Shown here: positions 1,265 through 42,025 of the stretch, piece by piece | Position numbering within the stretch: the first letter of the stretch is position 1 | How the letters are laid out: each line of letters begins with the position of its first letter | The notes under the pieces: model-generated | What the model saw: the letters and a program-made list of their open reading frames with translations, nothing else | Databases searched by the model: none | Told to the model about the DNA's origin: nothing | Assembly (NCBI GenBank): GCA_029945725.1 | Contig: JAQSDB010000008.1 | Span: forward strand, 446,710-510,709 | Direction: 5' to 3' | DNA from: a bacterium | GTDB taxonomy: Bacteria; Pseudomonadota; Gammaproteobacteria; Pseudomonadales; Moraxellaceae | Length of the DNA stretch: 64,000 bases | Translations under genes and position numbers: made by a program

Positions 1265-1776
1265 GACGCAATAAGGAAGAAAGCCCGCCTCTCATTACGG
1301 GCTTACTGATGGAGGATGGCAAAGGCGGCTATATCCCGGCTACAGCAGAAAGGATTCTGGCAATGGCACGGGCCGTAGCAGAACAACGCCTCGCGAAAGG
1401 AGTCAGCCTCGACTCACCCAATGTCGTTCGTGAGTGCCTGCCGGCACTGCTGGGCGCCTACAGCGAGGAGCGGTTCGGGGTGTTGTTTCTGGACAGTCAG
1501 AACAAGCTGATTGCCTATGAAGAAATGTTCCGGGGAACACTGGGCTCAACGACAGTGCATCCCCGGGAAATCGCGAAAGCAGCACTCGGCCACCATGCCG
1601 CTTCCGTGATCCTGGCTCACAATCACCCTTCTGGTTCGCGAGAGCCGAGTCAGGCCGACATCCAGATTACCCAGCGCATCAAGGAGGCATTAGGGCTGCT
1701 GGAGATCAAGATAACGGATCACTTCATCACCACCGGCACAGGTACGGTGTCGATGGCAGAAAAGGGGCTCATTTGA
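1261..1776 (+). CDS. radC: RadC-like JAB/MPN domain protein
   Basis: JAMM motif HNHPSGSREPSQAD plus EVHPREI-type core. Size is similar to the island-borne RadC paralogues YkfG/YeeS. The TTG start at 1261 has GGAG 7 nt upstream and overlaps the previous stop; ATG 1308 is an alternative start. Confidence 0.9.
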   Translation: MRRNKEESPPLITGLLMEDGKGGYIPATAERILAMARAVAEQRLAKGVSLDSPNVVRECLPALLGAYSEERFGVLFLDSQNKLIAYEEMFRGTLGSTTVHPREIAKAALGHHAASVILAHNHPSGSREPSQADIQITQRIKEALGLLEIKITDHFITTGTGTVSMAEKGLI

Positions 1777-3883: not shown

Positions 3884-4645
3884 TCAAACCGGAGAGACAA
3901 TTTTCGTGTCGACGAGTGAGCGCAGGTGTTCATCAAGCAGCTTTGCAATGCGCCCGCCAGAGATCAGAACACCGGCCTCCATGTTCTTTTCCATGGCGTG
4001 CCCGGTCAGGTTCGCGCTGGTGATGAAACACATTCTGCCGTCTGCGACAGCGACTTTGGCGTGAACGCGGCCGTCGGAAAACGGATCGGCCTTGTCGCGC
4101 CAGGCATAGAGATTGGCGGCCGGAACCAGCGTCCTCATTTTGCCTATCGCGTCGAAGGTAATGCTGCCGCCATGCTCTTGGGACAACTCAAGCAGCATTG
4201 ATATGGCCACACCGCGATCATTTGCCGCGTTCAGCGCCTTTACGATGGTGGACACGTCGTAGGCCACGAAACTGGTAATGAACAACGATTGTTCTGCGGA
4301 GTTGACGACCTGCAGCAGCGCCTGCTCTGTTCGACGCGCCGATACGAAAGGCGTCGTCGGGCCAGTCCACACGAGTTCGGTGGACTGCTCAGAAGCGGCT
4401 TTGGCGTAAACGTGGCTGGCAGCGATAAGCATTAATGCCAGTTCGTCTGAACCAACCTTTGTGTTTTGCCAGGCTCCCGCAAGCTGCTCGACCACGCTGC
4501 TGGCCACCGTGGTTCCCACCACGCTCGGCAACACCGTCGCGGCCTTGCTGGCATCGGTTCGACGAACGCGAGCGGCAACGGCCTGAACCTTTTCCGGCGA
4601 AACCAAAGAGACCAGGGCTGCAATGGCATCCAAGAGATCATCCAT
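3884..4645 (-). CDS. drmC: DISARM DrmC, phospholipase D-family nuclease
   Basis: PLD HxK(x)4D motif HAKVAVAD followed by TSAN. Its ATG lies 1 nt after the drmB stop (TGAcATG). Confidence 0.85.
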   Translation of the reverse strand: MDDLLDAIAALVSLVSPEKVQAVAARVRRTDASKAATVLPSVVGTTVASSVVEQLAGAWQNTKVGSDELALMLIAASHVYAKAASEQSTELVWTGPTTPFVSARRTEQALLQVVNSAEQSLFITSFVAYDVSTIVKALNAANDRGVAISMLLELSQEHGGSITFDAIGKMRTLVPAANLYAWRDKADPFSDGRVHAKVAVADGRMCFITSANLTGHAMEKNMEAGVLISGGRIAKLLDEHLRSLVDTKIVSPV

Positions 4646-4646
4646 G

Positions 4647-6506
4647 TCAGAAGCCCTTGAAGAATGCTGCGTCAGTACGTTCCAGTGTAGGTACCAGCAG
4701 CGATCGATCTAGATAGCGATTGCCTCGCTCGCAGGATGTTTCTGCCACCAGTGAGCACGCATGGCAGGCCGCAGCATGCAAAGAGCGGTCTTTCTCCGGA
4801 TCGTGCTCAGAGCAGAGAGGGTCCGACGAGCAGATCTTCGATCGATTCAGTGCTTGCTCAAGCAGGCGACCGAGGTTTTCAGGCTTTCCAAGATCAACGA
4901 GGCCGCCGAGCGTTCCGTCAGAATCCGCCGCTGCGGTATAGATCAGAATGCCTGCCTGTGATTGCTCGCCGGATGTGTCTGCATAAATTCGCTCGCGTAT
5001 GCTCGCTGCGTTGTAGCCGCACTCAAGCGCCAGCTCGCGAATAAGCAAATGCGACAGGGTATGGAGCATGGCGTAGCGAATGCCAGGGTAGCCTTCGTTC
5101 GGATCAAGATGGCGTGAGTTGCGCCATCCCCGGTGACCGCCGCGCAGCATCTGATCAATCTCTTTGACGCCGGCCAATGCCTCCCACTTAACGAGTGCCG
5201 CCTCATCAAACTGAATGAATATGCCCTCGCCATGAACTTGATTCGCAGGAACCCAGTCAGGTTTGCTGCGCGAAAGACTGGCCATTTGTGGCCGCTCATC
5301 GGGGTTACCCGATTCTTCCGGAGCCTCAACGCGAGTGAAGCCCAGCAGTGCGTTTACCTCGCGCAGTCGCTCAAGGAGTAGCACTCTGCTGATGTGAGCA
5401 GTGAATCCTGTTGGCGTGCCGACCTTCTTACTCATGAAGTGCGGGTAGTCGGTTGGCGGGTTCGTCTCTGTCAAAACCTCCCACTCAGGGCCTTTGATGT
5501 CGGCTTCGCCAACGGCGTCCTGATCGCCGCCCGTACGGTGGGCTTCAATGGCAGACCAGATAGCTGATGCGGGGTATTTGTCGATCCCCGGCAGCGCACC
5601 CGTTTTCTTCAACGTCTTCGCCGTGACTGATACTTCTGCCTCAGATTCAAGCTCTTCGAAGAACTCCCATCCATCTTGAATCAGCTGGCTGAGAGGGTCC
5701 TTCGTTTGTGGAATTGCGAGCGCAGAGAGGGTGATCGGAAACCAACTATTTGTGGCGCCCAACAAAACCGCTCGTGCTTCTTCATCACATTCATTATCGA
5801 AGTGATCCAGATGCGGATGGCGCCCACGGCAACCCGGTAGATTCTCTTTACCGGCTTTTCCAAAGGCGTGCGCCATGCTTCTAGACTCTCCACAAGAATC
5901 ACACTTCACCCACAGATTTTCGGTTTGTAGTGACGCTCCGCTCTCGAAGAAACGTAGCGTCCCCTTACATGAGCTAGGTCCAGAGTGTACGAAGTAGTGC
6001 CACGGAAAATCATCCAGGTGACCATCACGGCAGGCTAGAAGGAAACGTGCGGGAACGGCATCCGCATCTTTAGCAGGTTGGTCGCCCTTGGAACCACGGC
6101 AGCCCTTGTGAACGAAACGCGTCCGCTCCGGCCTGAAGCGGTTTTCCTTGATTTCGAACAGTCCGGCATCGAAGGGCGAAAGCAGGCCGCATTTCACGCA
6201 GCGCATCCAGCGTGGGAAAGGTCGAACCGGAACGCCGATGTTCGCTTCGGCCGACCACACATCTGACAATTCGCTCTTCTGGAACGGTGGCATCCGCAGG
6301 TTTTCCACTTGCGAACCCAGAACTTTTCTGACGGCGGCCAACAGCCGGGCCTCTTGGATCGGCTGGCAGCGGTCCTTCTCCCATCTATCAATACCCTGCG
6401 TGACCACGGACAGGCTCGGCAGGTCAATCAATGCGCCCGGTCCATAAGTCCAGAGTAATTGGCTTGGGCGAACTTCTCCCACTGGCGTCTTGTTATTGAT
6501 GATCAT
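4647..6506 (-). CDS. drmB: DISARM DrmB, DUF1998 domain protein
   Basis: C-terminal DUF1998 signature CSSDPLCSEHDP ... HAAACHACSLVAETSCERGN. The start is taken at ATG 6506 (MIINNK), 2 nt after the drmA stop, rather than the longer track ORF from 6545. Confidence 0.9.
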   Translation of the reverse strand: MIINNKTPVGEVRPSQLLWTYGPGALIDLPSLSVVTQGIDRWEKDRCQPIQEARLLAAVRKVLGSQVENLRMPPFQKSELSDVWSAEANIGVPVRPFPRWMRCVKCGLLSPFDAGLFEIKENRFRPERTRFVHKGCRGSKGDQPAKDADAVPARFLLACRDGHLDDFPWHYFVHSGPSSCKGTLRFFESGASLQTENLWVKCDSCGESRSMAHAFGKAGKENLPGCRGRHPHLDHFDNECDEEARAVLLGATNSWFPITLSALAIPQTKDPLSQLIQDGWEFFEELESEAEVSVTAKTLKKTGALPGIDKYPASAIWSAIEAHRTGGDQDAVGEADIKGPEWEVLTETNPPTDYPHFMSKKVGTPTGFTAHISRVLLLERLREVNALLGFTRVEAPEESGNPDERPQMASLSRSKPDWVPANQVHGEGIFIQFDEAALVKWEALAGVKEIDQMLRGGHRGWRNSRHLDPNEGYPGIRYAMLHTLSHLLIRELALECGYNAASIRERIYADTSGEQSQAGILIYTAAADSDGTLGGLVDLGKPENLGRLLEQALNRSKICSSDPLCSEHDPEKDRSLHAAACHACSLVAETSCERGNRYLDRSLLVPTLERTDAAFFKGF

Positions 6507-6508
6507 GT

Positions 6509-9500
6509 TTAATCCTCGTCCTTCGTTACAGGGCGAGGCCTCCACTCATGGTCGTCCGTAATGTGGCTCGTATTCATAATCAAACGTACGCCTGGCTCAA
6601 CCTCTCGCATCGACATCGGCACCGTCCAGTTGTCCCATGCCTGAATGCCGGGTGACTTGATCAGCGCGACAGTCGTATCTTTGTTTGGGCCGCGCTTCTC
6701 ATACGCCAATATCCGGCCGCCTTTGCTGACCTCTTTGGCCCATTCATCAGCACGCTCTTTGAGTTCCTGATCAGCCAGATTTTTGGTGCTTGATAGATCA
6801 CTTACGCCCCATGCCCTCTTGACCAGCACGTCAATGGCATCAGTGATCTCTGCCTGATCTGATTTATTCAGCTGGCCAGCTCCCTCATTAGGACTGAATA
6901 CATCGTTCTCAAGGCGCATCAAACTCAGCATCGCGCCCGTCAAACCCCTGTCCATCGCGCGCGGTGAGAATGGCGTTACCGATTGCGCCTCGACGTGTTT
7001 ATAGAACGTGGCGTGGTAATGCTCGAAGGTTTCGTAATGCGACAGGTCGCGCGGTCTGGCCCAAGTCAGCACCGTGCAAACCAAGCCTGGGAAGGAGCGC
7101 CCGACACGACTGGTGGCCTGAATGTATTCGGCGGTTCCCTTAGGCTGCCCGTTCACAGCCATGAGCCCGAGTCGATTCACGTCGACACCCACCGAAAGCA
7201 TGTTCGTCGCCAGCACCACATCAATGGCACGAGTGTCACCTTCCTGCCAGCGGGTCACGTACTTGCCGGTTGCTGTATCGAACTCGGACTTGAACTTGAC
7301 CTCTAGGTTATCGAGGTACTTGGGGATGTCCTGGCTTGATACTCGAGATGTCAGCTCACGGATATTGCTGATGCTGCGTTGTGCCAGTGCGGGCCGCTCC
7401 ACCATGCTCATCTGCACGCGATAGGAGCGTGTCTGCACGTCGTCCTCTGCCAGCCGCTTCATGCCGCCCAACTCGCGCAGGGAGTTGAAGTAGCCGACCA
7501 TGGTCATGTACGGGTCGGCGGGTTCGCCAAAGTGGTCGAACAGTTCCTGCGCTGCCGTCAAAAACGCGGTGTAGACGCGGATCAACATCGCTGGGCGCGA
7601 ACTGCCGGGAGAGCAAACGCCGAGGTAACGCCGTCCCGGCTTGTCTTCGATCGGGCGTTGCACCGAGAAGAAGTTGTCTTCCACATCCAGACCGTGAGGT
7701 GGAAACACCGAAACACGGCGCATGAAGACGTTGTTCACTTGCTCCTTGGCTTTGCGCACCGTCGCCGTGGAGGCAATGATCTTCGGTTTGACCGTTTTGC
7801 CATTGAGCGTCCAGCCGCACAGTTCATCCACGGCAGTCTCATACAAGCCCACCATGGTGCCCAGCGGCCCACTGATCAGGTGGAACTCATCCTGAATGAT
7901 CAAATCGGGCGGGCGAATCGGGTTGATGGTCTTTACCTTTGAAGAAGGAAGGCCCTTGCCAGCCTGGTGGTTACCATTGCAATCGGCACCGTGCCAAAGC
8001 AGTCCGTGGCGCTCACATTCCTGGCCCACGCGACCAAACAGTGTGCGCACCTGACCACGCCACGCCATCATGGCGAACTTGTCCACGGTGGCAATCATCA
8101 TCGTGGGTGGGCGGTGGTAGATCTCTTCGTCGACCACCAGCACCGGAATCCCCGGATGTGGCTGTTTGCTGGACTTGCCCTTGGAAAAATCGCAGCGGCC
8201 TTTCTTGTCGCCGCAGTAGACGAAGGTTCGGCCAGAGACTTTGTCGACCTCCACGTCGCGCCCAGGGGCCACTTCCGAGCCACACCATGGGCAACTGGTG
8301 AGCTGCGCGGGTGATGCCGCACCGGCGTTGTATTTGCCAGGGTTGCGCACATCCTCAATGGCGCGGTGGCTGTCCTCGGTCGTGCCCGGCGTTACCTTAT
8401 TGCCAACCCAAAGGCCGATGGTGAAAGGTTCCGTGCCAAGGGATTTATCACCTTTTTCCACTGCTTCACGTCGCAACATTTCCATTGCGCAAATCAGTGC
8501 AGTGGCGCGCTGGAATTGTTGCAGTGTCAGTAAGCGAAGTGTGTAACGCATGATCACGGCCAAACCGCGTGAGCTGTCGTAGCCGCCAAGATTGCCCTGC
8601 ATGCGCCGAATGGCCATGGTGAACGCCGCCACGCCTAAATAGGCCTCGGTCTTGCCACCGCCGGTGGGAAACCACAGCAAATCAGCGTAGGCCTCAACAG
8701 GCTCAACACGATCCGGGTGGCTTGGGTCTGCCAGCGAGGGGATTGAGAGCAGCAAAAACGCCAACTGGAATGGGCGCCAACTGCGGTTTTTCAGCACATC
8801 GAACTTGTCGATGGTGACATCCTCGCCTCGGCGCATGGCCAGCGCGTATTGGCTGCGCACACGTTGCGTTGCCATCGCTTGATTGGCGAACCGGAAGGCG
8901 GCCAGTGCTTTCTCATTACTCTTTAGCGTATCGATACCCTGCCGCAAGCGTGTGTGGATTTCCTGGCAGCGATCCATCGCTTGTTGCGACTGCGCTTCGT
9001 AGCCGGTGACTTCATCTCCAACGCGAGCGCGCTGCTCATTGATCCACGTGTCGTAATCCTGGGTCAGCATACTCAATGCCTCAACCAGCGGGTCAATTTC
9101 TAGAGTCGCTAATCGCTGCATATCGAGCAGGCCACTGCTGACCATCTCGCGCATCGCCGGGCGGTCGGATGGATCAAGCCCGGGTGTTTCCGTTACCTGC
9201 ACCTCGTACTGTGGCATCACCGTGGTACGCACCTCGGTAGCCAATGTCACGTCATCTGCAGTTTCGGCATGGACGGCAACGCCATGGCCCACGGCGAATT
9301 CGACACGGTTGCGGTAGATCATCTCTAGCGCTTCACGCTCGGGATCCATACCGTCTGCATCCAGCACCGGCCTGCGCCGGAAGATGGCACGCTTGGAAGC
9401 ACCCGTCTCAGAGCGAACGATTAGCTCGGGCTGGAAGACCCACGCCTCATCTCGGTTAGTTTTCGGCTCCTCCTGTGCATTCACCAGAAACAACGTGACC

Positions 9501-10516
9501 AGTCGATCACCATTGGCATTCTTGGCCCGAATAGAGCCCTGCATACGAACACCGGGAAATTCGCTGTCAGGAGCCTGATGCGGAATCGCGCCTTCAGACA
9601 GCGGCAGTACGATCTTGCCGCCACAAGGAATGCGCTGCCAAACCTTAGCCTTGGTCTGCACCTCCTCCCCAGTTTCCTTATTCTTGCGGATGCGAAATAT
9701 CTCGTGCTCGTCACTGCGCTCATATCGGCCCCAGCGAGCTTCGACCTCAATACGGTCAGCGTCACCATCCACGCAAAAGGTCATGCCGAGACTGCTCGGC
9801 ACCAACGACTGGTTGCTGGCAGCATCAATCTCGTCGGACGAATCCGACTCTGGCTCCACACGCCCTGTGGCCGTTCCAAACTCTGCACCCGGCTCGTGCC
9901 GTCCGGGAGCTTTGGCATCAGTTGGCTCCTCTGCGTCGTCATTGGCCAGTGGCCCGTCCAACCCCTCAATGCCGCCGTGTGCGGACTCACGCGGGGCCAG
10001 TTTGCCAACCAGGTAGCGGTCGCGAACACCCATATCGACAATGAGCTCATGGGGGCCGCAAGCAGGGCCAAGCAGGTCGTCCATCACGGCCAGCTGCAGC
10101 AGTTCACGAATATAGGCCTGATCCTCAATGGTCGGCACTTCAGCGATGGTCTTGTGCAACGCCTTGGGAAGCGACTCAAGGAAATCCATCCATTGCAGAC
10201 GGCCGACGTTGCCAGAGGATGGCGGCGTGAGCGATGTAAGACCAATCGAAATCGTCGGCTCAACCAACAACATGCGACCAAAGTAAATAGTGGTGGCTTC
10301 CAAATCAGAACGAAGCCGCAGTACCCGCCCGACCCGCGTGATGTGGCCAGTAGTGTTTAGGATCAACACCCAGTCGTCATCGGCGATGGCTTGGTACAGC
10401 GAGCGCTCGCCCCTCAGCCGCAATGTGTACGGTGCTAGCGTGAGATCGGCAGCAAGGCAATGATCAATGGCAATCCATGCATTGGGTGCTTTGCTAGGTT
10501 TGTTGTTGTCTGTCAT
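6509..10516 (-). CDS. drmA: DISARM DrmA, large DExH helicase
   Basis: Motif I FPTGGGKTEAYLG, motif II IIQDEFHLISG, helicase-C region (VLATNMLSVGVDV, QATSRVGR). GGGGAG RBS in the 12-nt gap after the KAP gene. Positioned directly upstream of the DUF1998 gene. Confidence 0.85.
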   Translation of the reverse strand: MTDNNKPSKAPNAWIAIDHCLAADLTLAPYTLRLRGERSLYQAIADDDWVLILNTTGHITRVGRVLRLRSDLEATTIYFGRMLLVEPTISIGLTSLTPPSSGNVGRLQWMDFLESLPKALHKTIAEVPTIEDQAYIRELLQLAVMDDLLGPACGPHELIVDMGVRDRYLVGKLAPRESAHGGIEGLDGPLANDDAEEPTDAKAPGRHEPGAEFGTATGRVEPESDSSDEIDAASNQSLVPSSLGMTFCVDGDADRIEVEARWGRYERSDEHEIFRIRKNKETGEEVQTKAKVWQRIPCGGKIVLPLSEGAIPHQAPDSEFPGVRMQGSIRAKNANGDRLVTLFLVNAQEEPKTNRDEAWVFQPELIVRSETGASKRAIFRRRPVLDADGMDPEREALEMIYRNRVEFAVGHGVAVHAETADDVTLATEVRTTVMPQYEVQVTETPGLDPSDRPAMREMVSSGLLDMQRLATLEIDPLVEALSMLTQDYDTWINEQRARVGDEVTGYEAQSQQAMDRCQEIHTRLRQGIDTLKSNEKALAAFRFANQAMATQRVRSQYALAMRRGEDVTIDKFDVLKNRSWRPFQLAFLLLSIPSLADPSHPDRVEPVEAYADLLWFPTGGGKTEAYLGVAAFTMAIRRMQGNLGGYDSSRGLAVIMRYTLRLLTLQQFQRATALICAMEMLRREAVEKGDKSLGTEPFTIGLWVGNKVTPGTTEDSHRAIEDVRNPGKYNAGAASPAQLTSCPWCGSEVAPGRDVEVDKVSGRTFVYCGDKKGRCDFSKGKSSKQPHPGIPVLVVDEEIYHRPPTMMIATVDKFAMMAWRGQVRTLFGRVGQECERHGLLWHGADCNGNHQAGKGLPSSKVKTINPIRPPDLIIQDEFHLISGPLGTMVGLYETAVDELCGWTLNGKTVKPKIIASTATVRKAKEQVNNVFMRRVSVFPPHGLDVEDNFFSVQRPIEDKPGRRYLGVCSPGSSRPAMLIRVYTAFLTAAQELFDHFGEPADPYMTMVGYFNSLRELGGMKRLAEDDVQTRSYRVQMSMVERPALAQRSISNIRELTSRVSSQDIPKYLDNLEVKFKSEFDTATGKYVTRWQEGDTRAIDVVLATNMLSVGVDVNRLGLMAVNGQPKGTAEYIQATSRVGRSFPGLVCTVLTWARPRDLSHYETFEHYHATFYKHVEAQSVTPFSPRAMDRGLTGAMLSLMRLENDVFSPNEGAGQLNKSDQAEITDAIDVLVKRAWGVSDLSSTKNLADQELKERADEWAKEVSKGGRILAYEKRGPNKDTTVALIKSPGIQAWDNWTVPMSMREVEPGVRLIMNTSHITDDHEWRPRPVTKDED

Positions 10517-10528
10517 ATGTGCTCCCCA

Positions 10529-12670
10529 TCAATCATCAAATGCACCAACGCCTTCAGGATTCTTCCCTGCCTTGAGCATCTCGAACTCTTTCAGAAACTG
10601 ATCGACAGACTCGCGTGCTGTCTCCGGAACAGAGCCCGCCTGCTGCAGGGCCGTCAAGCGCTGTGCGCAGGCTGAAGTGTCGATGTACCGCTCCAGCCAA
10701 GTTGGATTCAAACGTGGATGAAGGCGAACGGCCCAATCACCCATAGTCTGGGAGCGCGTGTGCGAGCAAAACTTCGTCAACAATGTCAGCAGACCATCGC
10801 TTGTAGAAGTGGCTGCTTCACACCATGTCTTTGCTTCGACTTGGTCACCCCAGAGGCACCATGCGGCCAATAAACGAGCAAGCTGCGAATGCGCCAGCAA
10901 TTCGCTCTGACTGAGCTTGGTTTTCAAGCCGTTAAGCCAGCAGGCTTTCAGGTCATCAAGTGTGGCTGTGCCAACGAGCGCCTCTTCGCCACTCTCGGCC
11001 CCCTTTTTAACCTCGTCGGACAGTGCTGCAATCAAATAGCGCTGGACTCCTATTGAGCGGCCTTGGTCTATCGCAGGCTTGAGCAGGTCATGCCGCTGCG
11101 TTCGGTCGACTCGTTTCAGAAGGTGATACACCACGCGTGTGACGCGTGATTCGTTGCCAAAATCGAAGGAGCCACGCTCATCGCTGTCGAGCACAAGCGA
11201 ATCGCCGATATCAAAGAGCACACCGATAAACACCGGGATGTGCACATCGGGAATGTCCTCTTCAACGTGATCCATCAGCCGCTCAAGGAGTGCCCGTGCT
11301 TTTGACAGGCCATCAGGGCGTTTCAAGCTCGTGGCTTGAACCAGCGCGTCGCCCAACGCGGCAGGCGTTTCTGCCAAGCTCAAAAGCGTCAGCATTTCGC
11401 TGCGGCGGACAGCGCCAGGAGGAACAGCCATGCGAAAATAAGTGGGGAACACGTCGGGGTGGCAAGCGCGCAGACTCCTCCGCCATTGCGCCAACCAGTC
11501 GGCCCCGTAACCCATTTGGCCAATTTTCGGGAAAATGCGCTCCAGCAGGTCTCTCGTGCTGGACCGCAGCTGCTCTGGCAGTGTTTGCGCCCATTGCTCA
11601 TGGAAGGCTGCTCTAGCGTTTTGATCGCCGTCATACCGGTTATCGCGGCTGTGACCTGAAAACCTATCTTGGTTTGTGCGGATGACGTCGTACAGGCCGG
11701 GTAGGAAAACGCGAAGCGCTTCAAGCGCAATGAAATCCACCGGATTGACCTCCCCACGCACCGCCGGATAGGTCACTGACAATGTGTTGGTGAAACGAAC
11801 GACATCACGCGGCACCTGGATCAGCGGGTCAATCCCATCGTGGAAGGCATTCGTCCAATAGGACTGATCGAACAGGCCATCCGGTGTGTCACCAAGAATT
11901 TCATCAAGACGCTTGAACAAGGCGGCCCGCAATGCCACTCGATCGACTGGTGGCAGTTCGAATGGCACCTGAATGATCTTCTCCAGATAGCGCGCGCCCG
12001 GCATACCGCTCTGTTGCTCGATGGCCTGTGCGGCGACTTCACGATCGAAGGCGAGTAGGTAGACGACGTTGGGAAAGTCGGCCAACGCCTTGATGACAGT
12101 GAAAAGCTGGCGGGTCTCTTCAGGCGTGAGGCGGTCGATATCATCAATGACGACAAGGATTCGCTTTTCAGCCTCTCGCAGTATCTTGCTGATTTCAGAC
12201 TTGAGCGCAGGAATGTCTTTGGGTTTGCGCTTGGTCACCAACCCAATCAGCTTGCCGATCTTGCTACCTGCACCGCCGGTCATGCCACTCAGGTCGATCA
12301 GTCCACCAACGCCTTCGGAAAAATCGCCAAGCAGGTCGCCCAGTTTTTTGAACTTCTCATTCTTGGTGGGCAGCACGGCCTGCAACTGGCCAAGAAAAGC
12401 ACGGGCGAGGTTTTCCTGGCCGGAGAACCACCACGGATTGAAAGTCACGATGACAGGCTGTTCAGCTTCCGGGCGCTGTTCCAGGAAGTGCCGCACATAG
12501 TTCAGAACCGTGGACTTTCCCGAGCCCCACGGTCCATAGAGCGCCAGCACCAAGCCATCATTACCCGGGTAGCGACAAATGCTATTGGCAAGGCTTTCAG
12601 CGAACGGAGCGTGTCCGAACAGGTCATCCTGCGGGTTTGAGCTGGGGCGATCGGCGGAGAGAGCAGTCAT
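10529..12670 (-). CDS. KAP-family P-loop NTPase
   Basis: Walker A GPWGSGKST, Walker B LVVIDDIDR, KAP-like length and layout. Its ATG shares 1 nt with the drmMI stop (TAATG). Confidence 0.9.
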   Translation of the reverse strand: MTALSADRPSSNPQDDLFGHAPFAESLANSICRYPGNDGLVLALYGPWGSGKSTVLNYVRHFLEQRPEAEQPVIVTFNPWWFSGQENLARAFLGQLQAVLPTKNEKFKKLGDLLGDFSEGVGGLIDLSGMTGGAGSKIGKLIGLVTKRKPKDIPALKSEISKILREAEKRILVVIDDIDRLTPEETRQLFTVIKALADFPNVVYLLAFDREVAAQAIEQQSGMPGARYLEKIIQVPFELPPVDRVALRAALFKRLDEILGDTPDGLFDQSYWTNAFHDGIDPLIQVPRDVVRFTNTLSVTYPAVRGEVNPVDFIALEALRVFLPGLYDVIRTNQDRFSGHSRDNRYDGDQNARAAFHEQWAQTLPEQLRSSTRDLLERIFPKIGQMGYGADWLAQWRRSLRACHPDVFPTYFRMAVPPGAVRRSEMLTLLSLAETPAALGDALVQATSLKRPDGLSKARALLERLMDHVEEDIPDVHIPVFIGVLFDIGDSLVLDSDERGSFDFGNESRVTRVVYHLLKRVDRTQRHDLLKPAIDQGRSIGVQRYLIAALSDEVKKGAESGEEALVGTATLDDLKACWLNGLKTKLSQSELLAHSQLARLLAAWCLWGDQVEAKTWCEAATSTSDGLLTLLTKFCSHTRSQTMGDWAVRLHPRLNPTWLERYIDTSACAQRLTALQQAGSVPETARESVDQFLKEFEMLKAGKNPEGVGAFDD

Positions 12671-15600
12671 TACATCCCCTCGTGATGGACGTCTCGGAGC
12701 ATGGACTGAGGGATCGCCGCTTCACTTTCGACAAAGCCCTTGATTACTTCATTTTCAAGCCGAGCTAATAACTTTGCCTTGTCATCTTGGTCATGGGTAT
12801 TGATGAGACTTTCAGCAAGACCTGCAATGCATTCTTTCTGGCCCGGATCGAATGAAGAAGGTATCGGTAGTTGTTCCAGAAAATTCTTCTTGACCTGAGA
12901 AAACACCTTTCCAGACTGCATCGTCATACTCCGATAGATCTCGGTCATCTTGGGGTGGTTTAGAACAGCACAGAGGAAGTGTGCGGATACCCCAACCTTG
13001 GGGATGATGCAAAGAAGAGATTTTTGATGAAAGAAACGGTCACTATCTACGGTGGCGATGATTTGATCGCCTGTTTGCCTGACAAGAATCTTAGGAGACA
13101 CGACATAAGCCTTCTCGTTGACCTTGAGACGACTTTTTGAATCAATTGCGATGTGTTCCTGCTGGATGTCTCTCCAGTTGTTGCGAAGCCATATTCCCTC
13201 AAAATTCAGCGAGTATTTTCCGACATTCCTACCTCGCAGGACCTTGTAGTCGGACGGATTTTCCGCAGCCTGACCTGCATAGAAGACGGCATTTCCCAAA
13301 GCCGCCCTCGAATAATCAATTCCACTGTCAAAAACGTCGGCCAACTCGACCAGCGGCACTGACGCGCCGCTGCTGATGTGCTTCACATTGGCGCCGTGAC
13401 TAAGGACGAAGTTTTTTCGGCCTTTTATTTCCTGGATTGTTTTGAAAGCCCAATCGCTATCTTGCCGTGTTGCTTCTGGCTTGCAGTACCCTTCAAAGGT
13501 ACCAAGGACTATAGGATGTTCTTCGGCAGCAGCGTGCTTATTGATGACTCCGAAGCAGCAGGACTGTGTGACGCCATGGAACATTCCGTCTCCACAGTCG
13601 ATGAACATGATTGGTGAGCGGCTCAACAAAAGCGCTCTGTTATCTCTGCACCCAATATGTTCGAGCAGGCTTGACGGAACGAGAAACGAGTACGTGTTCG
13701 CTGCATTAGCAGTGATTTGATCCATTCTCTCAATGAAAAACTTGAACGAATTGATCAGCTTGTAAGCGGAGTTCGGATATGTTTTCTTCAGATGTTGAGT
13801 GTCTGCTTCCGACAGCGATGCGCCCCATGGAGGATTTCCAAGAGTCGCATCAAACCCCGGAGCAGACGAATAGAAGACTTCTGGAAATTCAAGTGGCCAG
13901 TGAAATGGCCGTCGTGCCGGTCTTCCGAAAGGAAGATCGGCTGAAAGATTGACGGCGGCTCTTCGGCGCATTGACGAGAGTGAATCCAAGGCACCATCAA
14001 CGGCTTGCTCAGCTTGTGCGCTCAACGAAGCAAGTGCGCTTTCGAGTTTCACGCCATTGCCGCCCAATGCGAACACCTCACCAATGAACGCATCGGCGAT
14101 GCATTCTGGCACTTCGAGCATGCGGCGCGCATCGGCGTCCAGATGTGCCATGGTTTCCACGTCGCGAATGTCGCGGATAGGTATCGTGCGAAGACGTGAA
14201 CGCAGTTCAATCGCTTCAAGCACAGATTTTTTAACGTTCTGACCAAACAGACGTAACTGGCCCTGGCGGGCAGGCGTCATTGAAAGTTCGGTGAGTTGAT
14301 CTAGCCGATGGATGCCGAGCAAGCTGTCACCGCAGCGCAGATTGTGGTCGAGGAAGCCAAAGGGGCGACCCTTGGCCAGCGTCACCAACCAGATTGAGAG
14401 CTTAGCGAGCTCAACTGCCAGCGGATTTAGATCGACGCCGTACAAGCAACGCTCAGCGATGAGGCGGCGCGCGATCACCGTTCGCTCCTCACTATCTTGA
14501 GGCAGAGGCTCCTTGACCACTCCAGCTTCCAGAACTTCACCATCCACACTCACGGTTTTGCCCAAGACCTCAACTTGTGACCATGACTCAACGAGGCGAT
14601 CGGATAGCCAGCGGCAGGCCTGCACCAGGAATGCGCCCGAGCCCATGGCCGGGTCGCAGATCTTGAGGTCGAGCAGTTCAGCAGGGGATTTCAGTGCCCA
14701 TTGATCGCGCGGCGTACCCTCTGCCGGGCCGACATAGGCCACTGGCGTGAGAGTCTCGGCGACGATTGCTTCGGTCAGGGATTTCGGGGTGTAGTGGGTG
14801 CCGGTTTCGCGACGGTCGGAACCGGTGGTGACAATGAAGGCACCTGCGGGATAGACCAGTGGATAGCCCCAAGGGTCGGTGCGCAGCAGATGGGCATAGG
14901 GTTTGACGCGGTCGCGGAGCTTGGTGTCGCCCTGGCAAGCGGTCAACAGGCGGTCGGCCAAGGTGTCGTCGACGGGCTTGACTAGATCATTGCGCACCCG
15001 GCTGGCCGAACTGCCAGAGCGTTCTTGCAGCAACTCGGCCAGTCGCGTTGCACCATCCAAGCTAGCCGAATCCAGTTCGGCCAATTTGACCCATGGCATC
15101 TTGGCGCTCTTGGTGGCATCCAGTTCCAGCGTGACTTCATCGGTGCGCTTGACGGTGCGCTCCAGCAAGCCCTCGTAGACGTAGCCGATCTGTTCGACAT
15201 CCAGCGCGCGATAAGACAGCGTGCGCCCTTGGAATTGCTGGATGGCTTCCAGCAACAGCAACACGGTGCGGTTGTCGATAGGCAGCGGCTTGGCTGCATC
15301 GCTGTGCCAGTTCGAGCCTTTGGCCCGGCCCTCGAGGAAGGGGAAGCGGTCGGGATCAAACAGCGAGCCGCCCAAGGCGGGCAGGCGCAGGTTTTCGTGC
15401 TCAATGCCGCCGAACACCGCGCGGAAAATTGCCAGTAGGCGCGACCAGGCATCCCAGCGGCGCTCCAGAATTTCCTCGGATTCCTTGCGCAACTGCATGC
15501 GCAAAGTGGAGAGCGCGTAGTTGGCTTCGTAACGCTCGTCGCCCATCAGCAGCAGGCCACGCTCCTCGGCGGAGAGCAGGAACACCAGGCGCATCATCAC

Positions 15601-16449
15601 CGTCAGCGCGGCTTCATACAGCTCTGGTGCTTTGACGTCGTGCAGGAGTTCTCGATTGCGGTCCTGATCGGCTTTGTCGAGTGTTTGAATCAATACCTCG
15701 ACGGCGCGGCGTACTTGCTCGCCAAGGGCGTCGGTGACTTCGTCTTGGAATTTCAGGGAACGATCGAACAGCGCGGGCAGTTGTTCAGTTTCGTCGACAA
15801 AGAAACGGCGAATGCCGAGCAGATGCACGAAGGCCTGCAGGGTGATGGGCTCTTGGCTCCAAATGCGGGCATACCAACTGGCGAAGGTGGTGACGGCACC
15901 CACCGGGGCATCCACCAGCATCCAGCGCTCGCCGTTGGTCACCAGCCCGAGCCGACAACCCAATGAACGGCACAACTGAACCATGCGATCGGCAGGAGTG
16001 GCGGCCCAGCCGTCTTGTTTCAGCGTGGCATCGAGGCCGACATCCTGCGCATAGATTTGGACCAGCAGCAGTGGCTTGTTGGCGCGTTGCTCATCGACTA
16101 CCGCAAGATCGGGCAACAGCGTCACGCCGTGTTCGGGCAAGTTGGCTTTGAGGTTGGCAGCGCACCAGGCGGCGCGCTTGAGAACGTCGCCTTTGCCGTC
16201 TTCATCAAGCTCAAGGCCCCGTGATAGCACTTCGTTGATCCAAGCCACATGCAACTCGGCGAACTGTGCGTCCTCCAACTCCAGCGCTTCGCGCCATTCC
16301 TCGTAGGCTTGGCGCAGACGTTTGCGCTTGGTGGCATCCAGTTCTTCCAGTCCTTGCGGAAAGGCTTCCTTGAGCACGGGAACGGCGAGGAAGGGGCCGG
16401 AAATCTCGATCAGCGACAGCCAATCATCATGCACGCCGGGAGCACTCAT
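12670..16449 (-). CDS. drmMI: DISARM DrmMI, N6-adenine DNA methyltransferase (Eco57I/PglX-like)
   Basis: HYTP-type motif (GTHYTPKSL), motif I DPAMGSGAFL, motif IV NPPWG (nt 13825-13836). Its ATG overlaps the drmD stop (ATGA). Confidence 0.9.
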   Translation of the reverse strand: MSAPGVHDDWLSLIEISGPFLAVPVLKEAFPQGLEELDATKRKRLRQAYEEWREALELEDAQFAELHVAWINEVLSRGLELDEDGKGDVLKRAAWCAANLKANLPEHGVTLLPDLAVVDEQRANKPLLLVQIYAQDVGLDATLKQDGWAATPADRMVQLCRSLGCRLGLVTNGERWMLVDAPVGAVTTFASWYARIWSQEPITLQAFVHLLGIRRFFVDETEQLPALFDRSLKFQDEVTDALGEQVRRAVEVLIQTLDKADQDRNRELLHDVKAPELYEAALTVMMRLVFLLSAEERGLLLMGDERYEANYALSTLRMQLRKESEEILERRWDAWSRLLAIFRAVFGGIEHENLRLPALGGSLFDPDRFPFLEGRAKGSNWHSDAAKPLPIDNRTVLLLLEAIQQFQGRTLSYRALDVEQIGYVYEGLLERTVKRTDEVTLELDATKSAKMPWVKLAELDSASLDGATRLAELLQERSGSSASRVRNDLVKPVDDTLADRLLTACQGDTKLRDRVKPYAHLLRTDPWGYPLVYPAGAFIVTTGSDRRETGTHYTPKSLTEAIVAETLTPVAYVGPAEGTPRDQWALKSPAELLDLKICDPAMGSGAFLVQACRWLSDRLVESWSQVEVLGKTVSVDGEVLEAGVVKEPLPQDSEERTVIARRLIAERCLYGVDLNPLAVELAKLSIWLVTLAKGRPFGFLDHNLRCGDSLLGIHRLDQLTELSMTPARQGQLRLFGQNVKKSVLEAIELRSRLRTIPIRDIRDVETMAHLDADARRMLEVPECIADAFIGEVFALGGNGVKLESALASLSAQAEQAVDGALDSLSSMRRRAAVNLSADLPFGRPARRPFHWPLEFPEVFYSSAPGFDATLGNPPWGASLSEADTQHLKKTYPNSAYKLINSFKFFIERMDQITANAANTYSFLVPSSLLEHIGCRDNRALLLSRSPIMFIDCGDGMFHGVTQSCCFGVINKHAAAEEHPIVLGTFEGYCKPEATRQDSDWAFKTIQEIKGRKNFVLSHGANVKHISSGASVPLVELADVFDSGIDYSRAALGNAVFYAGQAAENPSDYKVLRGRNVGKYSLNFEGIWLRNNWRDIQQEHIAIDSKSRLKVNEKAYVVSPKILVRQTGDQIIATVDSDRFFHQKSLLCIIPKVGVSAHFLCAVLNHPKMTEIYRSMTMQSGKVFSQVKKNFLEQLPIPSSFDPGQKECIAGLAESLINTHDQDDKAKLLARLENEVIKGFVESEAAIPQSMLRDVHHEGM

Positions 16450-19400
16450 GCTGCACCTCCCTGAGCAGCAGATGCAGGCACCAGAAAGATCACGGCGACC
16501 GGGAAGGTGCGGTCGTTGAGTTTGGCGTAACGGGTTTCGATGGCTTCAGCCTCCTGCTGGCGCTCGGCCGGAATGCGGGCAAGACGCGCTTCCAGTGCGG
16601 CGGTGTCGCGCCGCAACTGTGTTCGCTCATCCTCCGAGAACAGAGAGAACTGTTCTGGTTGCTGATCTTTTTTAAGCTCATTTTTAATAGCGTTTTCCAG
16701 CTCATCAAGCACGGCACTAATGTCGTCAACCTCCTGCTGTTTACGAGCCTGAAGGGTGCTTGTCAGGAATCTGAGTCTGTCTTTAGACCTAGCCTCAACT
16801 GACTGCAGGACGGTGCTTTGTGCACGATCGAAACGAACACGAATGGCATCGAATAGCGAATCTGCGGCGGTCAGCGGCTTGGCTTGATCCAGCCATTGCT
16901 GAACCTTGGTGACCCCCTCTTCTCGACGAAAAGATTTATCCCCCAGATAGCCGCCGGCCACCGTCAGTTCCTCATGAAGGCGATGATGATTTCCACCAGT
17001 AACGACCAATCGCGAGACGACAACTACAGCAGGGCCATCCATCAGCGCATCCGGCACCACACGCACTGTGACGCGATGCAACTTCTTCACATCGTCTTGT
17101 GCCCAGACCTCGGCACGCAGCAATCGGAGGCACATCTGTACCAATCGGTGGTTGAGGTGAACCAGCACTACATCGTCGCGCCCGGTGGCGACGGCATGAT
17201 CGAAGGTGATAGGACGAATTTGAAGTGTGTGAGGATGGCGCAGTCCTTCAAGGCAGCGCGCCCATGAGCCCGACAGCGCGGGCATCTTGAATACGGTTCC
17301 CGCCGGAGCATCAGTCAAGTTGAAAGGCTCGAGCGGCGGGCGGCCTGCCAACTCGAGGCCCGTCTTGACCGCCATGAGGATGTGCTCTGGCGTGAGGTGG
17401 AAATCTTTCTGCGTAGCCAGCAACCGCTCGTGCAGCTTGGCAACCCGGTCTTTCAGTTCACGCTCGGCGCGTACGAAGCGTCTAGCCTTGGCGATCTTGG
17501 CTTCAGCTACGCGAGTGTCGAGGTCCTTGAGCGAGCCTTCGATCAGCCCCGACATCTGCGGCGCTATGACCGGGTTGACGCTGCCCATGTCCGCCCGCAT
17601 GGATTCGAGCTTGCGCAGTGCTCGGATGATGTCGTCACCGTGGCCACCAATGGTTGCTTTGCCTTGTTCGCCGCCATCGACGGGGTGCCAGATCAAGACT
17701 TCTTTCTGACGCTGGCCGTGCCGGTCGATACGGCCATTACGCTGCTCCATCACATTGGGGTTGTAAGGGATCTCCAAGTGGATGAGGCAGTTACAGTGGT
17801 TCTGCAAGTCGATACCTTCGGACGCGGCATCAGTTGCCAGCAGGATGCGGACTGCTGAATCCTTGGGCGAAGCCTGGAAGGCCGCTTTGACTTTCTCGCG
17901 CTCATCCTGCGGCATGCCACCATGAAGAATGGCCAGCCGATCGCCACCAAAATCGTGGCTCGCGAGAATCTCGTGCATCCACTGATGGGTTGTTCGAAAT
18001 TCGGTGAACAAGATCACCCGGCGCTCATTCCAATGACCATCCGTCTTTAAATTGTTCGCGAGCCAGTCGAGGATTGCTTTGGCTTTGGCGTCGACCTGAT
18101 TCTTGGCAGTCTGCGCCCACGATCGTAGCTCGTTCAGCATTTGCTGCTGGTCTGCTGTCAGCGGCTGTGCACGGCGCGATGCCTCTTCAACAGCCTCTGA
18201 CTGGGCATTTTCGACTTCATGGTCGTTGGCATAGTCTTCATCTACCCGGAGGATGGCCTTTCGTAAAATCCGGTCAGCCATCACATCCTTGTCTTTGCGT
18301 TGGCTACCGTTAACCAGGCTGGAAACGTGCTTTTCCAAGGTGGATGCAAAGGCGGCAGGAGAAGAAAAGAGCCGCTTCTTCAGCAGTCGGTTGACGAACG
18401 AGGTGCCGAATGCATTTCCCACCCTCTCTGCATCTTGCTCACGACTCGCGCAATAATCATTCAGCTTCTGGTGAATGACCCGCTCTTGTGCGGAATACGA
18501 GGCCAGCAGCGCTTGCAGCTTACGCTGCGCATAGAGTGGCTTTCCTTCCGCATCAATCAGGTCGCTTTTGAGGCGACGAATCATCACCTGACTCAGCTGC
18601 TTTTCATCCGGCAGGATGTTTCGGGCGAAACGCTGATCGTCCAGCAACTCCAGCAGCGAAGTGAAAGATTCGGTGTAGCCGTTGTGTGGGGTGGCCGTGA
18701 GGAACAGCCGATGCTGAAAGTGCGGACTGATTGAGCGAATGAAGCGTGTACGCTGGCTCTCCAGCGCGTAGTTCGCACCAGCAGCGGGGGCGATGTTGTG
18801 TGCTTCGTCGACCACCAGCATGTCGAACTTGCGCGGGTAGCTGGTGTGTGCGGGCAGGACGTCGCGCATGGCGCGCAGTCCTTCGCCGCTTTTGACCCAG
18901 TCCATGGACGCAATCAGGCGTGGATGCGAAGTCCAGGGATTAGCGTGGATGCCGCGATCTCGGCGTAACTGCTTGATGTAGCTCGTATCGACAACTCGGA
19001 AATCAAGACCAAACTTTTCCAGCATCTCCACGCGCCACTTCTCTTGCAGCGATGCTGGGCAAATGATCAGAACAGTTCGAGCTCGATGCCGCAGCAACAT
19101 CTCCTGAATGACGAGACCAGCCTCAATGGTCTTGCCCAAGCCGACGTCGTCAGCGATGAGCAGATTGACGCGAGCCATGTCGATGGCACGCACCAGTGGG
19201 TCGAGCTGAAAATCCTCAATGCTGACACCGCTGCGGAACGGCGCTTGCAGGAATCCCCTATCGGCATTGGTCGCCGCACCCCAACGAACAGCGTCGAGAA
19301 AGGCTTCGAGTGTGTCAGAGTCGTCTTGGCCGGTAATCGAGGGAAGCCCCGCACGCTCAATAATTTGCGCACCGGGCTCAATCTCCCAGATGACCTCAAG

Positions 19401-19613
19401 TTCCTCGCCTAGGCCATCCTCGTCAATTGAACTTAGCTTAACCAAGCTCTCAGGTGCTTTCAGCGTGTACTTGGATAAAGGCTCTTCTACTAAAAAGCCA
19501 CCAGCGCCAAGAGAAGAGTAATTAACATCAGCCACAACCCATTGCCGTCGACGCACCTCAACTAGCTGCCCAGGCTCTGGCGACATACCTATCTGCTGCA
19601 AGTCCTTTTCCAT
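16446..19613 (-). CDS. drmD: DISARM DrmD, SNF2-family helicase
   Basis: SNF2 motifs LIADDVGLGKTIEAG, VVDEAHNI, LFLTATPHNG, helicase-C LLATDAASEGIDLQ. Confidence 0.9.
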   Translation of the reverse strand: MEKDLQQIGMSPEPGQLVEVRRRQWVVADVNYSSLGAGGFLVEEPLSKYTLKAPESLVKLSSIDEDGLGEELEVIWEIEPGAQIIERAGLPSITGQDDSDTLEAFLDAVRWGAATNADRGFLQAPFRSGVSIEDFQLDPLVRAIDMARVNLLIADDVGLGKTIEAGLVIQEMLLRHRARTVLIICPASLQEKWRVEMLEKFGLDFRVVDTSYIKQLRRDRGIHANPWTSHPRLIASMDWVKSGEGLRAMRDVLPAHTSYPRKFDMLVVDEAHNIAPAAGANYALESQRTRFIRSISPHFQHRLFLTATPHNGYTESFTSLLELLDDQRFARNILPDEKQLSQVMIRRLKSDLIDAEGKPLYAQRKLQALLASYSAQERVIHQKLNDYCASREQDAERVGNAFGTSFVNRLLKKRLFSSPAAFASTLEKHVSSLVNGSQRKDKDVMADRILRKAILRVDEDYANDHEVENAQSEAVEEASRRAQPLTADQQQMLNELRSWAQTAKNQVDAKAKAILDWLANNLKTDGHWNERRVILFTEFRTTHQWMHEILASHDFGGDRLAILHGGMPQDEREKVKAAFQASPKDSAVRILLATDAASEGIDLQNHCNCLIHLEIPYNPNVMEQRNGRIDRHGQRQKEVLIWHPVDGGEQGKATIGGHGDDIIRALRKLESMRADMGSVNPVIAPQMSGLIEGSLKDLDTRVAEAKIAKARRFVRAERELKDRVAKLHERLLATQKDFHLTPEHILMAVKTGLELAGRPPLEPFNLTDAPAGTVFKMPALSGSWARCLEGLRHPHTLQIRPITFDHAVATGRDDVVLVHLNHRLVQMCLRLLRAEVWAQDDVKKLHRVTVRVVPDALMDGPAVVVVSRLVVTGGNHHRLHEELTVAGGYLGDKSFRREEGVTKVQQWLDQAKPLTAADSLFDAIRVRFDRAQSTVLQSVEARSKDRLRFLTSTLQARKQQEVDDISAVLDELENAIKNELKKDQQPEQFSLFSEDERTQLRRDTAALEARLARIPAERQQEAEAIETRYAKLNDRTFPVAVIFLVPASAAQGGAA

Positions 19614-19665: not shown

Positions 19666-20706
19666 CTACTCTGCTTTTATATTTTTGATATGAATTTTTA
19701 TGCTCTTGCCAATAGCGCGTCCTAGGTCAACAGGCACTGCGTTACCAATTAAACGGCCCAACGCCTTGAAATTAACAGGCTGGCCTGTGGACAAAAACTT
19801 GTAAGTCCTTGGAAAGCTCTGGAGTATCGCTGCTTCCCTCAGCGAAATGGCTCTATCCTGTTCAGGATGCCCAAAGCGGCCATTACCAAAGCCAAAACAT
19901 TGCGTTGTCATTGTGGGAGCCGGCTTATCCCACTCCATTCGGCCATAAACGCCAGCATATGTTTTTCCACTTTCAACGCGGTGACATGCCGCCACTAAAC
20001 TCTCGGGCCAGTCTCTCCATGTACCACCGGGCTTAGAAACACGAATGCGTCGAAGATTAGTATCCGAAAGCGTTGCAGACACATGCAACTTGTCACGCTC
20101 ATATGCCTCACCAGCACTAAGCGGACGCAGTCGGCCAATTGCTTGGCGAACCGTTTTAGGCTTTTCTCTAATTGGAGGAATGAGCTGCAACTTTCCATGC
20201 TTTGACGCAAGCAAAACCGTTCGACGACGTGACTGAGGAACGCCATATTTCGAGCTATCAACGACATCAAACCAGACGGTATAGCCCAAGCGCTCAAGCC
20301 CTTTCGAAAAATCCTTGAAAACCTTGTGCTTCACAACGGTGGGAACATTTTCCATTGTGACAATGTCGGGCTCGGTACCCTTAACCAATCGGAAAAATTG
20401 ATACAGAAGCCCCCACCTTGAATCGTCATCATCAGCATAGCGCTGTGCATAGGTTGAAAATGGCTGACATGGCGCACAGCCAGCCAATACTTTTATGTCG
20501 GCATCGCCAAAGAGCTCTATGAGCTCCTTACTCTTTACTTTGCTGATGTCTTTGTTCAGAAATTTGGCTTGGTTGTTTGATTCATAGGGAAATTTGCAGG
20601 CTGGATCCAAATCAATACCAGCTGCGACAGAAACGCCCTCAAGGTGTAGACCGTGGGTCAACCCCCCCACCCCACAAAACAAATCAATACAAGAAATGGT
20701 TTTCAT
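19666..20706 (-). CDS. DNA cytosine-5 methyltransferase (possible DrmMII-type partner of the DISARM locus)
   Basis: All canonical m5C motifs are present: I DLFCGVGG, IV APCQPFS, VI ENV, VIII QSRRR, X GNAVPV. It ends 52 nt upstream of drmD. Its GC is visibly lower than its neighbours. Confidence 0.95.
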   Translation of the reverse strand: MKTISCIDLFCGVGGLTHGLHLEGVSVAAGIDLDPACKFPYESNNQAKFLNKDISKVKSKELIELFGDADIKVLAGCAPCQPFSTYAQRYADDDDSRWGLLYQFFRLVKGTEPDIVTMENVPTVVKHKVFKDFSKGLERLGYTVWFDVVDSSKYGVPQSRRRTVLLASKHGKLQLIPPIREKPKTVRQAIGRLRPLSAGEAYERDKLHVSATLSDTNLRRIRVSKPGGTWRDWPESLVAACHRVESGKTYAGVYGRMEWDKPAPTMTTQCFGFGNGRFGHPEQDRAISLREAAILQSFPRTYKFLSTGQPVNFKALGRLIGNAVPVDLGRAIGKSIKIHIKNIKAE

Positions 20707-27605: not shown

Positions 27606-27607
27606 GA

Positions 27608-27886
27608 TCAGGCCTTGCGCTGCTTTTCAAGCCAGGCGAGGACTTCGTCCAGGAAGTAGCCGGTTGAACGTGCCCCCAAGCGGATTTTCTTGGGCCAGGT
27701 CGGATCAAAACGAGGAGACTTGGGATTTTCTTTATCGGCGCGCGTGGAGTCAGGGATACCCGTAAGTTTGCGCATATCCTTGGCACGAACAATGACGCGA
27801 GCAGCGGGAAGAGACGCTACCGCTGCCTGAGCAGGGAGCGGGGATACAGAAGCAGCGGGTTCGCTGCTGGATTTATCAAACGTCAT
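27608..27886 (-). CDS. alpA: AlpA-family (phage/island) transcriptional regulator or excisionase-like protein
   Basis: C-terminal 60 aa match the AlpA/MerR-like HTH pattern (VIVRAKDMRKLTGIPDSTR ... KIRLGARSTGYFLDEVLAWL). It has a 30-aa Ala/Ser/Pro-rich N-terminal extension. Confidence 0.8.
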   Translation of the reverse strand: MTFDKSSSEPAASVSPLPAQAAVASLPAARVIVRAKDMRKLTGIPDSTRADKENPKSPRFDPTWPKKIRLGARSTGYFLDEVLAWLEKQRKA

Positions 27887-42022: not shown

Positions 42023-42025
42023 TAC

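Follow-up and report, generated by a model that had tools for sequence, protein, structure and literature searches.

A PifA-like KAP NTPase gene in the variable slot between drmMI and drmA of class 1 DISARM operons

Operon layout and the KAP protein

The window, which is the whole stretch of 64,000 nucleotides analysed here, carries an operon in which all five genes of class 1 DISARM (drmA, drmB, drmC, drmD and drmMI) were identified with PADLOC and Pfam (Table 1). The PADLOC paper defines class 1 DISARM by these five genes. Between drmMI and drmA, whose identities were assigned with the same tools, lies a gene on the minus strand for a KAP-family P-loop NTPase that is outside this definition. 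An earlier note on this DNA, made from the letters alone, had described the position of the gene, its Walker motifs and its close junctions with the neighbouring genes, and had held that KAP was foreign to the class 1 definition; our reading agreed with it on each of these points. The stop codon of drmMI and the start codon of KAP have one A in common. At the other end, the KAP stop codon (TGA, 10531-10529) is followed by 12 nt, tggggagcacat, with the Shine-Dalgarno sequence GGGGAG, and then by the ATG of drmA at 10516. The remainder of the chain is equally tight. drmD and drmMI overlap in ATGA (16449-16446), and drmB and drmC are separated by 1 nt. The longest open reading frame of drmB, beginning with a GTG at 6545, would share 37 nt with drmA. 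An ATG at 6506, 2 nt past the drmA stop, corresponds to the start used for drmB in homologous loci. A gene for a DrmMII-like C5-methylase was found 52 nt upstream of drmD. Promoter-like and terminator-like sites were not commoner within the operon than in shuffled sequence, and there was no such site at either junction of KAP. The whole locus is situated in an integrase-bounded defence island.

Table 1. Genes and sequence features of the DISARM operon in the window
Feature	Position (nt)	Strand	Basis and remarks
BrxU/HEC-05-like GmrSD gene	2022-3830		53 nt downstream of drmC
drmC, PLD nuclease-like	3884..4645	-	PADLOC DrmC 1.7e-119; Pfam PLDc_2
drmB (DUF1998/MZB)	4647..6506	-	PADLOC DrmB; Pfam MZB; ATG start at 6506 probable
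drmA	6509..10516	-	1335 aa; PADLOC DrmA; 2480 bits against PDB 7s9v (Serratia sp. SCBI DrmA)
KAP stop, 12-nt spacer with GGGGAG Shine-Dalgarno sequence, drmA ATG	10514..10531	-	
KAP-family P-loop NTPase, PifA-like	10529..12670	-	713 aa; Pfam KAP_NTPase 1.4e-60; PADLOC PifA model PDLC02361
Walker B VVIDDIDR	12131..12154	-	residues 173-180; read from sequence
Walker A GPWGSGKST	12509..12535	-	residues 46-54; read from sequence
drmMI stop and KAP start overlap, TAATG	12668..12672	-	one A common to TAA and ATG
drmMI, N6-adenine methyltransferase with TaqI_C-type specificity domain	12670..16449	-	1259 aa; PADLOC DrmMI; Pfam Eco57I, TaqI_C
drmD, SNF2 helicase	16446..19613	-	PADLOC DrmD; Pfam SNF2-rel_dom
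drmMII-like C5 cytosine methyltransferase	19666..20706	-	PADLOC DrmMII 7e-87; Pfam DNA_methylase

PifA of the F plasmid is the T7 exclusion protein, and the KAP family is partly named after it (PMC13552941). The protein in the window matched Pfam PF07693 with 205.5 bits (cut-off 20) over residues 21-302, and the PADLOC PifA model at full length (E 2.2e-114; residues 3-690 aligned with positions 4-713 of the 720 in the profile). Plasmid genes of the F type annotated as 'phage T7 exclusion protein' aligned with its residues 15-539, 74% of the query, at 25% identity and an E value of 6e-26, so that the two are homologous but distant. On F-like plasmids the PifA gene is adjoined by pifC, and PifA is triggered by gp1.2 and gp10 of T7 with a membrane leak as the resulting phenotype. 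There were also weak HMM matches of the KAP protein to QatA.

Across 26 homologues, the Walker A residues G46-T54 were invariant or nearly so, and D176, D177, I178, D179 and R180 of Walker B were invariant. A Kyte-Doolittle analysis in 19-residue windows found no convincing transmembrane helix in the protein and none between Walker A and Walker B; the highest value, 1.78 at residue 476, belonged to a segment with two Asp inside it and outside the insert between the Walker motifs. This insert (residues 95-150) is Gly-rich and was modelled at low confidence. The AlphaFold2 model was mediocre as a whole, with a mean pLDDT of 69; its confident parts were the P-loop domain (about residues 10-240) and a helical C-terminal domain (420-713), and residues 243-419 were modelled poorly. 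In a Foldseek search with this model, matches were obtained for the ATPase core alone, and these were weak (RdrA, ORC/Cdc6 and BrxC, TM-score <=0.26), and there was no match for the C-terminal domain. A sequence search found no relative of the protein in the PDB. No recognisable effector domain was found in it, and no nuclease domain was seen.

Contents and turnover of the slot between drmMI and drmA

The DrmA of the window was used to scan one genome per species, and the best 80 of the 498 relatives retrieved were used (69-94% identity). In 68 of these 80 loci, which represent close DrmA relatives at the level of species, the interval between drmMI and drmA was visible. One to four embedded genes occupied this slot in 59 loci and nine were empty. 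Seven of the 68 loci had KAP or its remains, in each case immediately 3' of drmMI and with a GHKL gene behind. Besides KAP, at least a dozen types of cassette were found. The commonest were GHKL ATPases of 626-656 aa, and others were PDC-S39 (DUF7380 with DUF4209), a 478-aa GHKL protein with Methyltransf_35, an AspBHI-like Mrr type IV enzyme, a HEPN_MAE_28990 protein, PDC-S02, a UG5 RT-nitrilase DRT, a helicase with DUF2290, and a second type of DrmD accompanied by a 541-aa protein without known function. Their overlap with drmMI is 1-4 nt, and at the other end they lie as close to drmA as KAP does. Because unrelated cassettes are equally coupled to the operon, the tight coupling is a property of the slot and not of KAP.

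The variation extends beyond the embedded genes themselves. Conservation of DrmMI between related loci was limited to the N-terminal 69% or so, with a variable C-terminal part, and the first 10 or so codons of drmA co-varied with the cassette upstream, up to a conserved NAWIAIDH motif. Since the DrmMI C-terminus, the slot content and the 5' codons of drmA all vary or are lost, the drmMI specificity region together with the slot forms the variable block of otherwise conserved operons, with conserved sequence on both sides. In a neighbour-joining tree of DrmA, which was built without support values and may be blurred by recombination, the loci with KAP were scattered among loci with other contents.

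Loss or decay of the cassette was seen in several loci. In L026, a metagenome-assembled genome of Oxalobacteraceae, KAP has been removed by a clean in-frame deletion of about 2.16 kb and the operon is otherwise intact. This locus has the same drmMI allele as the window, 90% identical over the full length, and its reading frame is fused to the final 19 nt of KAP (...GAFDD*); after these come the identical 12-nt spacer and then drmA. In L011 KAP is reduced to its last 44 codons, and in L042 and L064 the gene is frameshifted. KAP is not the only cassette to leave such traces, as three of the loci counted as empty (L015, L045 and L066) retain 3' scars of PDC-S39. Thus, the slot holds many alternative defence cassettes that are subject to gain, loss and erosion, and KAP is optional in class 1 DISARM.

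Among class 1 systems, that of Serratia sp. SCBI is the best studied. It is described as having six genes, which were reassembled from three plasmids (drmMII; drmD with drmMI; drmABC); without any slot gene, the rebuilt system methylates and protects against phages and conjugation. There are Serratia marcescens loci with KAP whose DrmA is about 98% identical to that of SCBI (PDB 7s9v). Because the rebuilt system was active and its DrmA is so similar, a nearly identical DISARM core can work without KAP. Because this system was analysed without a slot gene, any interplay between a slot gene and DISARM would have been missed there.

These results bear on the idea that KAP, and perhaps other slot genes, is an integral but optional accessory, which would attach to DrmAB or DrmMI, serve there as an alternative sensor, regulator or effector, and supply a missing killing step, DrmC being dispensable. 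The conserved translational coupling and the location of the slot exactly between the methylation and the helicase modules would suit such a role, and the effector of DISARM is unresolved (Bravo et al. 2022). However, the contents of the slot are mutually unrelated, and several of them match models of recognised or candidate stand-alone systems (DRT, Helicase-DUF2290 and type IV Mrr). The nine empty loci have no slot gene at all, and the six-gene Serratia system is active. Considering the heterogeneity of the slot and the activity of the six-gene system, we regard an accessory role as improbable, and less likely than the guard function considered below.

The KAP lineage inside and outside DISARM

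More than 100 homologues of KAP at 74-93% identity were found in Parazoarcus, Massilia, Aeromonas, Pseudomonas, Serratia, Kluyvera, Enterobacter, Citrobacter and E. coli. When the genomic context was checked starting from KAP, homologues at 54-93% identity lay in class 1 DISARM in all 11 cases. Ten of these checks covered E. coli, Parazoarcus, Pseudomonas, Serratia marcescens, Aeromonas, an Oceanospirillaceae genome and four metagenomic proteins, and in all ten KAP was directly 3' of drmMI; the eleventh was the lone close match in viral contigs, which was also within DISARM. At identities of at least 74%, drmA was the next gene in eight of nine checks, with the 12-nt spacing in seven of those, and this spacing is common to the loci of E. 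coli, Parazoarcus and Pseudomonas. A metagenomic homologue at 54% identity also precedes drmA, with a looser spacing. Together with eight loci reached through DrmA, every homologue of at least 54% identity that was placed belonged to class 1 DISARM and stood directly after drmMI wherever drmMI was on the contig; no non-embedded homologue at this level was found among those placed. The earlier note had considered that the insertion might be unique to one strain. This was ruled out by the more than 100 homologues and by the same position of KAP in E. coli, Parazoarcus and Pseudomonas, with homologues down to 54% identity similarly placed across genera.

Two further searches gave no close homologue. 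When the E. coli KAP gene was searched by megablast, complete RefSeq genomes of E. coli gave no match, and the plasmids in PLSDB contained no close homologue, all matches being below 60% identity.

The association with drmMI deserves attention. In 15 of 15 KAP-bearing loci the start of KAP overlaps the stop of drmMI (in ATGA, GTGA or TAATG), and the C-termini of drmMI in these loci are unrelated. In addition, the divergence of KAP tracks that of the core genes DrmA and DrmD. The parallel divergence of KAP and DrmA points to co-inheritance over a long time. These features would suit a PrrC-like guard, in which contact with DrmMI (or DrmAB) would hold a DISARM-specific KAP latent and an abortive response would follow when an anti-DISARM factor of a phage disables that partner. 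The homologues at 54-93% identity are found in DISARM only, immediately 3' of any visible drmMI even when another cassette comes next, and there is a precedent in PrrC, which Payne et al. (2024) describe as almost exclusively embedded in type I RM and latent through EcoprrI. On the other hand, operons persist after the loss of KAP, and an exclusive linkage could arise from hitch-hiking as well. Relatives at identities up to 46% with the same architecture live alone, and therefore the KAP fold does not need DISARM. Because the association of KAP with drmMI is exclusive, deep and fixed in position, this reading stays alive, and we hold it to be possible but unlikely. In its fullest form, a KAP lineage that co-diversified with class 1 DISARM would be a dedicated guard that monitors DrmMI or DrmAB and brings about abortive infection once DISARM is neutralised, to which we give the same rather low credence. 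If it is true, the slot between drmMI and drmA would be a socket in which second-line effectors connected to DISARM can replace one another.

Purifying selection on KAP was comparable to that on DrmA and DrmD, with pN/pS of 0.11-0.28, and this holds across genera. A decaying passenger is therefore rejected. The selection also weighs against a selfish or addictive hitch-hiker, that is, a toxic KAP NTPase whose linkage to DISARM would stabilise or spread it with little benefit for defence. A selfish benefit of embedding is discussed by Payne et al. (2024), and the integrase-bounded island around the locus would be a suitable setting for such an element. However, besides being strongly selected across genera, KAP has family members in the defence hot spots of prophages and plasmids, and KAP-domain proteins of Enterococcus defend experimentally (PMC13552941). 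We consider this explanation very improbable.

The relatives of KAP outside DISARM are more distant. The family is large, comprising 4946 representative clusters at E<=1e-30, and more than 100 near-full-length representatives at 33-54% identity were among the best 150 of the 4946. The more distant full-length relatives that were placed stood alone, on a plasmid, on a metagenomic contig or inside prophages. A homologue at 46% identity stands by itself, with a radical-SAM gene on one side and a peptidase gene on the other, a full-length one at 38% is carried singly by a conjugative plasmid of Trichormus, and those at 28-32% are genes on the opposite strand within structural modules of prophage contigs. 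Because relatives at no more than 46% identity occur as lone genes, the architecture of about 710 aa exists outside DISARM. The KAP lineage of DISARM (at least 54% identity) is a twig of this large family, whose sampled members at up to 46% identity are stand-alone.

We can now return to the argument in the earlier note that the tight coupling makes KAP a stoichiometric seventh component rather than a passenger. That KAP is not a mere passenger was supported by the purifying selection, by a divergence that tracks the core genes and by embedded homologues down to 54% identity. The stoichiometric seventh component found no support, given the small share of loci with KAP, the unrelated cassettes that are equally coupled, the natural losses and the active six-gene Serratia system. 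A KAP gene at the junction of drmMI and drmA proved recurrent in the checks begun from KAP but far from universal in the census.

Proposed role and comparison with known systems

We lean, with modest confidence, towards the explanation that KAP belongs to the PifA family of defence genes and has its place in a variable slot of DISARM, with which it is co-expressed and co-transferred, adding a second and probably abortive layer of defence. A self-contained anti-phage KAP module would have been captured into the hypervariable cargo slot between drmMI and drmA, where it is presumably co-transcribed and translationally coupled with the class 1 operon. By analogy with PifA of the F plasmid, the helical C-terminal domain may sense a phage protein, and the NTPase with its Walker A and B motifs may power the change into a toxic or abortive state. 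The module would then provide a second layer of protection when a phage bypasses the DNA-targeting layer of DISARM, and the embedding would ensure that both layers are expressed and transferred together.

Some observations count against this explanation, namely the low identity to F PifA, the parallel divergence of KAP and DrmA, and the fact that no transmembrane segment or effector domain was found in the protein. Judged from the homologues placed so far, the confinement of KAP to DISARM also seems tighter than expected of a freely mobile cassette and resembles that of the host-dependent PrrC.

If KAP does act as an independent second layer, the operon would be a concrete case of layered immunity, in which a DNA-targeting system and a probable abortive-infection module are on the same transcript. 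In general terms, the embedding of genes in DISARM has already been described by Payne et al. (2024), who report that embedded defence genes are frequent in DISARM, BREX and type I RM, and propose backup or guard roles with PrrC and BrxU as the cited examples. The searchable text and supplements of that paper contain no description of the drmMI/drmA junction as a slot, or of the KAP lineage, and we found no other literature text on either of them specifically. What is new here is therefore more specific: the embedding site in class 1 DISARM, which comprises the drmMI specificity region and the drmMI/drmA junction; the catalogue of slot cassettes and of the scars left on their loss; and a KAP lineage confined to DISARM.

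Among known systems, PifA of the F plasmid is like the KAP protein of the window in that a KAP P-loop NTPase is followed by a long helical C-terminal region; the protein of the window also matches the PADLOC PifA model at full length and has a detectable direct similarity to F-type PifA. It differs in sequence, the identity being 25%, and in setting, since the KAP gene of the window lies in a DISARM operon and PifA on an F-like plasmid. The KAP NTPase domain is also shared with QatA of qatABCD, with Tmn and with EF_KAP of Enterococcus, the last of which has been shown by experiment to defend in a manner dependent on Walker B (PMC13552941). The C-terminal regions of these three are unrelated to that of the window's KAP. 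Moreover, the NTPase domain of Tmn and EF_KAP contains transmembrane helices, whereas none was predicted in the KAP of the window, and QatA works together with QatBCD.

The system of PrrC and EcoprrI offers a comparison of organization rather than of sequence. As in the window, a defence gene for a P-loop NTPase is nested in a methylation-based system, and the lineage occurs almost only in the embedded state; Payne et al. (2024) describe PrrC as almost exclusively embedded in type I RM and kept latent by EcoprrI. However, PrrC carries an anticodon nuclease fused to its ABC-type ATPase, and its latency and its activation by Stp are proven, whereas no nuclease domain was seen in the KAP of the window. 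A broader likeness is to the genes nested inside Hma, BREX and DISARM as well as type I RM in Payne et al. (2024), including BrxU in BREX. PADLOC candidate models (PDC-S39, PDC-S02 and HEC-05) match neighbouring cassettes, and in those systems, as in the class 1 operons described here, a gene is nested on the same strand and alternative cassettes occupy one site.

Variable gene content and probable cassette exchange at operon junctions

The gene found most often in the variable slot between drmMI and drmA is a GHKL ATPase (HATPase_c_3) of 626-656 aa, which occurs in L020, L011 and about 30 other related class 1 DISARM loci and is often placed after the PifA-like NTPase gene (KAP). These ATPases match the PADLOC "REase_II" models, and the 626-aa form has a SpbK match in its C-terminal stretch. 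In a variant class 1 layout (L047, L050, L054-L056, L059, L068 and L073), the order was drmMI, (GHKL), a second-type DrmD (PADLOC PDLC02623), an unannotated 541-572-aa protein and drmA, with the SNF2 gene thus placed after drmMI.

The first ~10 codons of drmA vary with the upstream cassette (L010-L089; window 10460-10516), and the divergent 5' ends in L010-L089 come together at a conserved AAYGCATGGATCGCC (NAWIA) motif, which is a likely recombination boundary for cassette exchange. Between drmD and drmMI, an Mrr_cat gene was present in the Pseudomonas loci L006-L009 and in the metagenomic locus L092, and several further loci had an unannotated gap of ~650 nt, the same length as this insertion. 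The drmD/drmMI junction therefore appears to be a second, smaller embedding site of the operon. In the KAP-bearing locus of Parazoarcus communis (L005:4949-10004, CP022188.1), drmMI was split by an IS3-family transposase, and because of this interruption that DISARM copy may be inactive.

Coordinates of features in the window and in related DISARM loci (L-numbers, own coordinates)
Feature	Position	Strand	Match or place
Druantia type III DruE, 1874 aa	window 21019-29360 (whole Druantia region)	minus	PADLOC DruE3, E = 0
GmrSD-type gene	window 2022-3830	minus	PADLOC HEC-05, E 5.6e-214
RadC gene; integrase	window 1261-1776; 30357-31556		flanks of defence island
P450 oxidation-type cluster	window 37589-43536		host flank
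Mrr_cat gene, 210 aa	L006-L009:5254-5886; L092:5296-5928		drmD/drmMI junction
Slot GHKL ATPase	L020:8091-9971; L011:8033-9988		drmMI/drmA junction

The defence island and its host flank

Bracketed by the RadC gene and the integrase, the ~30-kb defence island comprises the HEC-05 gene, DISARM with KAP, and Druantia III. The window as a whole yielded no tRNA gene. DruE directly precedes the DISARM locus upstream. Where DruH was expected in this Druantia III, one ORF of 324 aa gave only a weak match to the DruH C-terminus and a second of 441 aa had no match; DruH may be split or divergent here. On the shared strand, the HEC-05 gene lies 53 nt downstream of drmC, and L010 likewise has a HEC-05-type GmrSD gene after drmC. 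HEC-05 is the PADLOC candidate family to which BrxU belongs.

The host flank resembles a P450 oxidation cluster: it encodes a ferredoxin reductase, a GMC (choline-dehydrogenase-family) oxidoreductase and a P450, as well as an AraC-type regulator that scores above the cut-off of NCBIfam CypR. Such clusters are similar to CYP153 alkane hydroxylase loci, a likeness that would suggest a hydrocarbon-degrading proteobacterium as the host.
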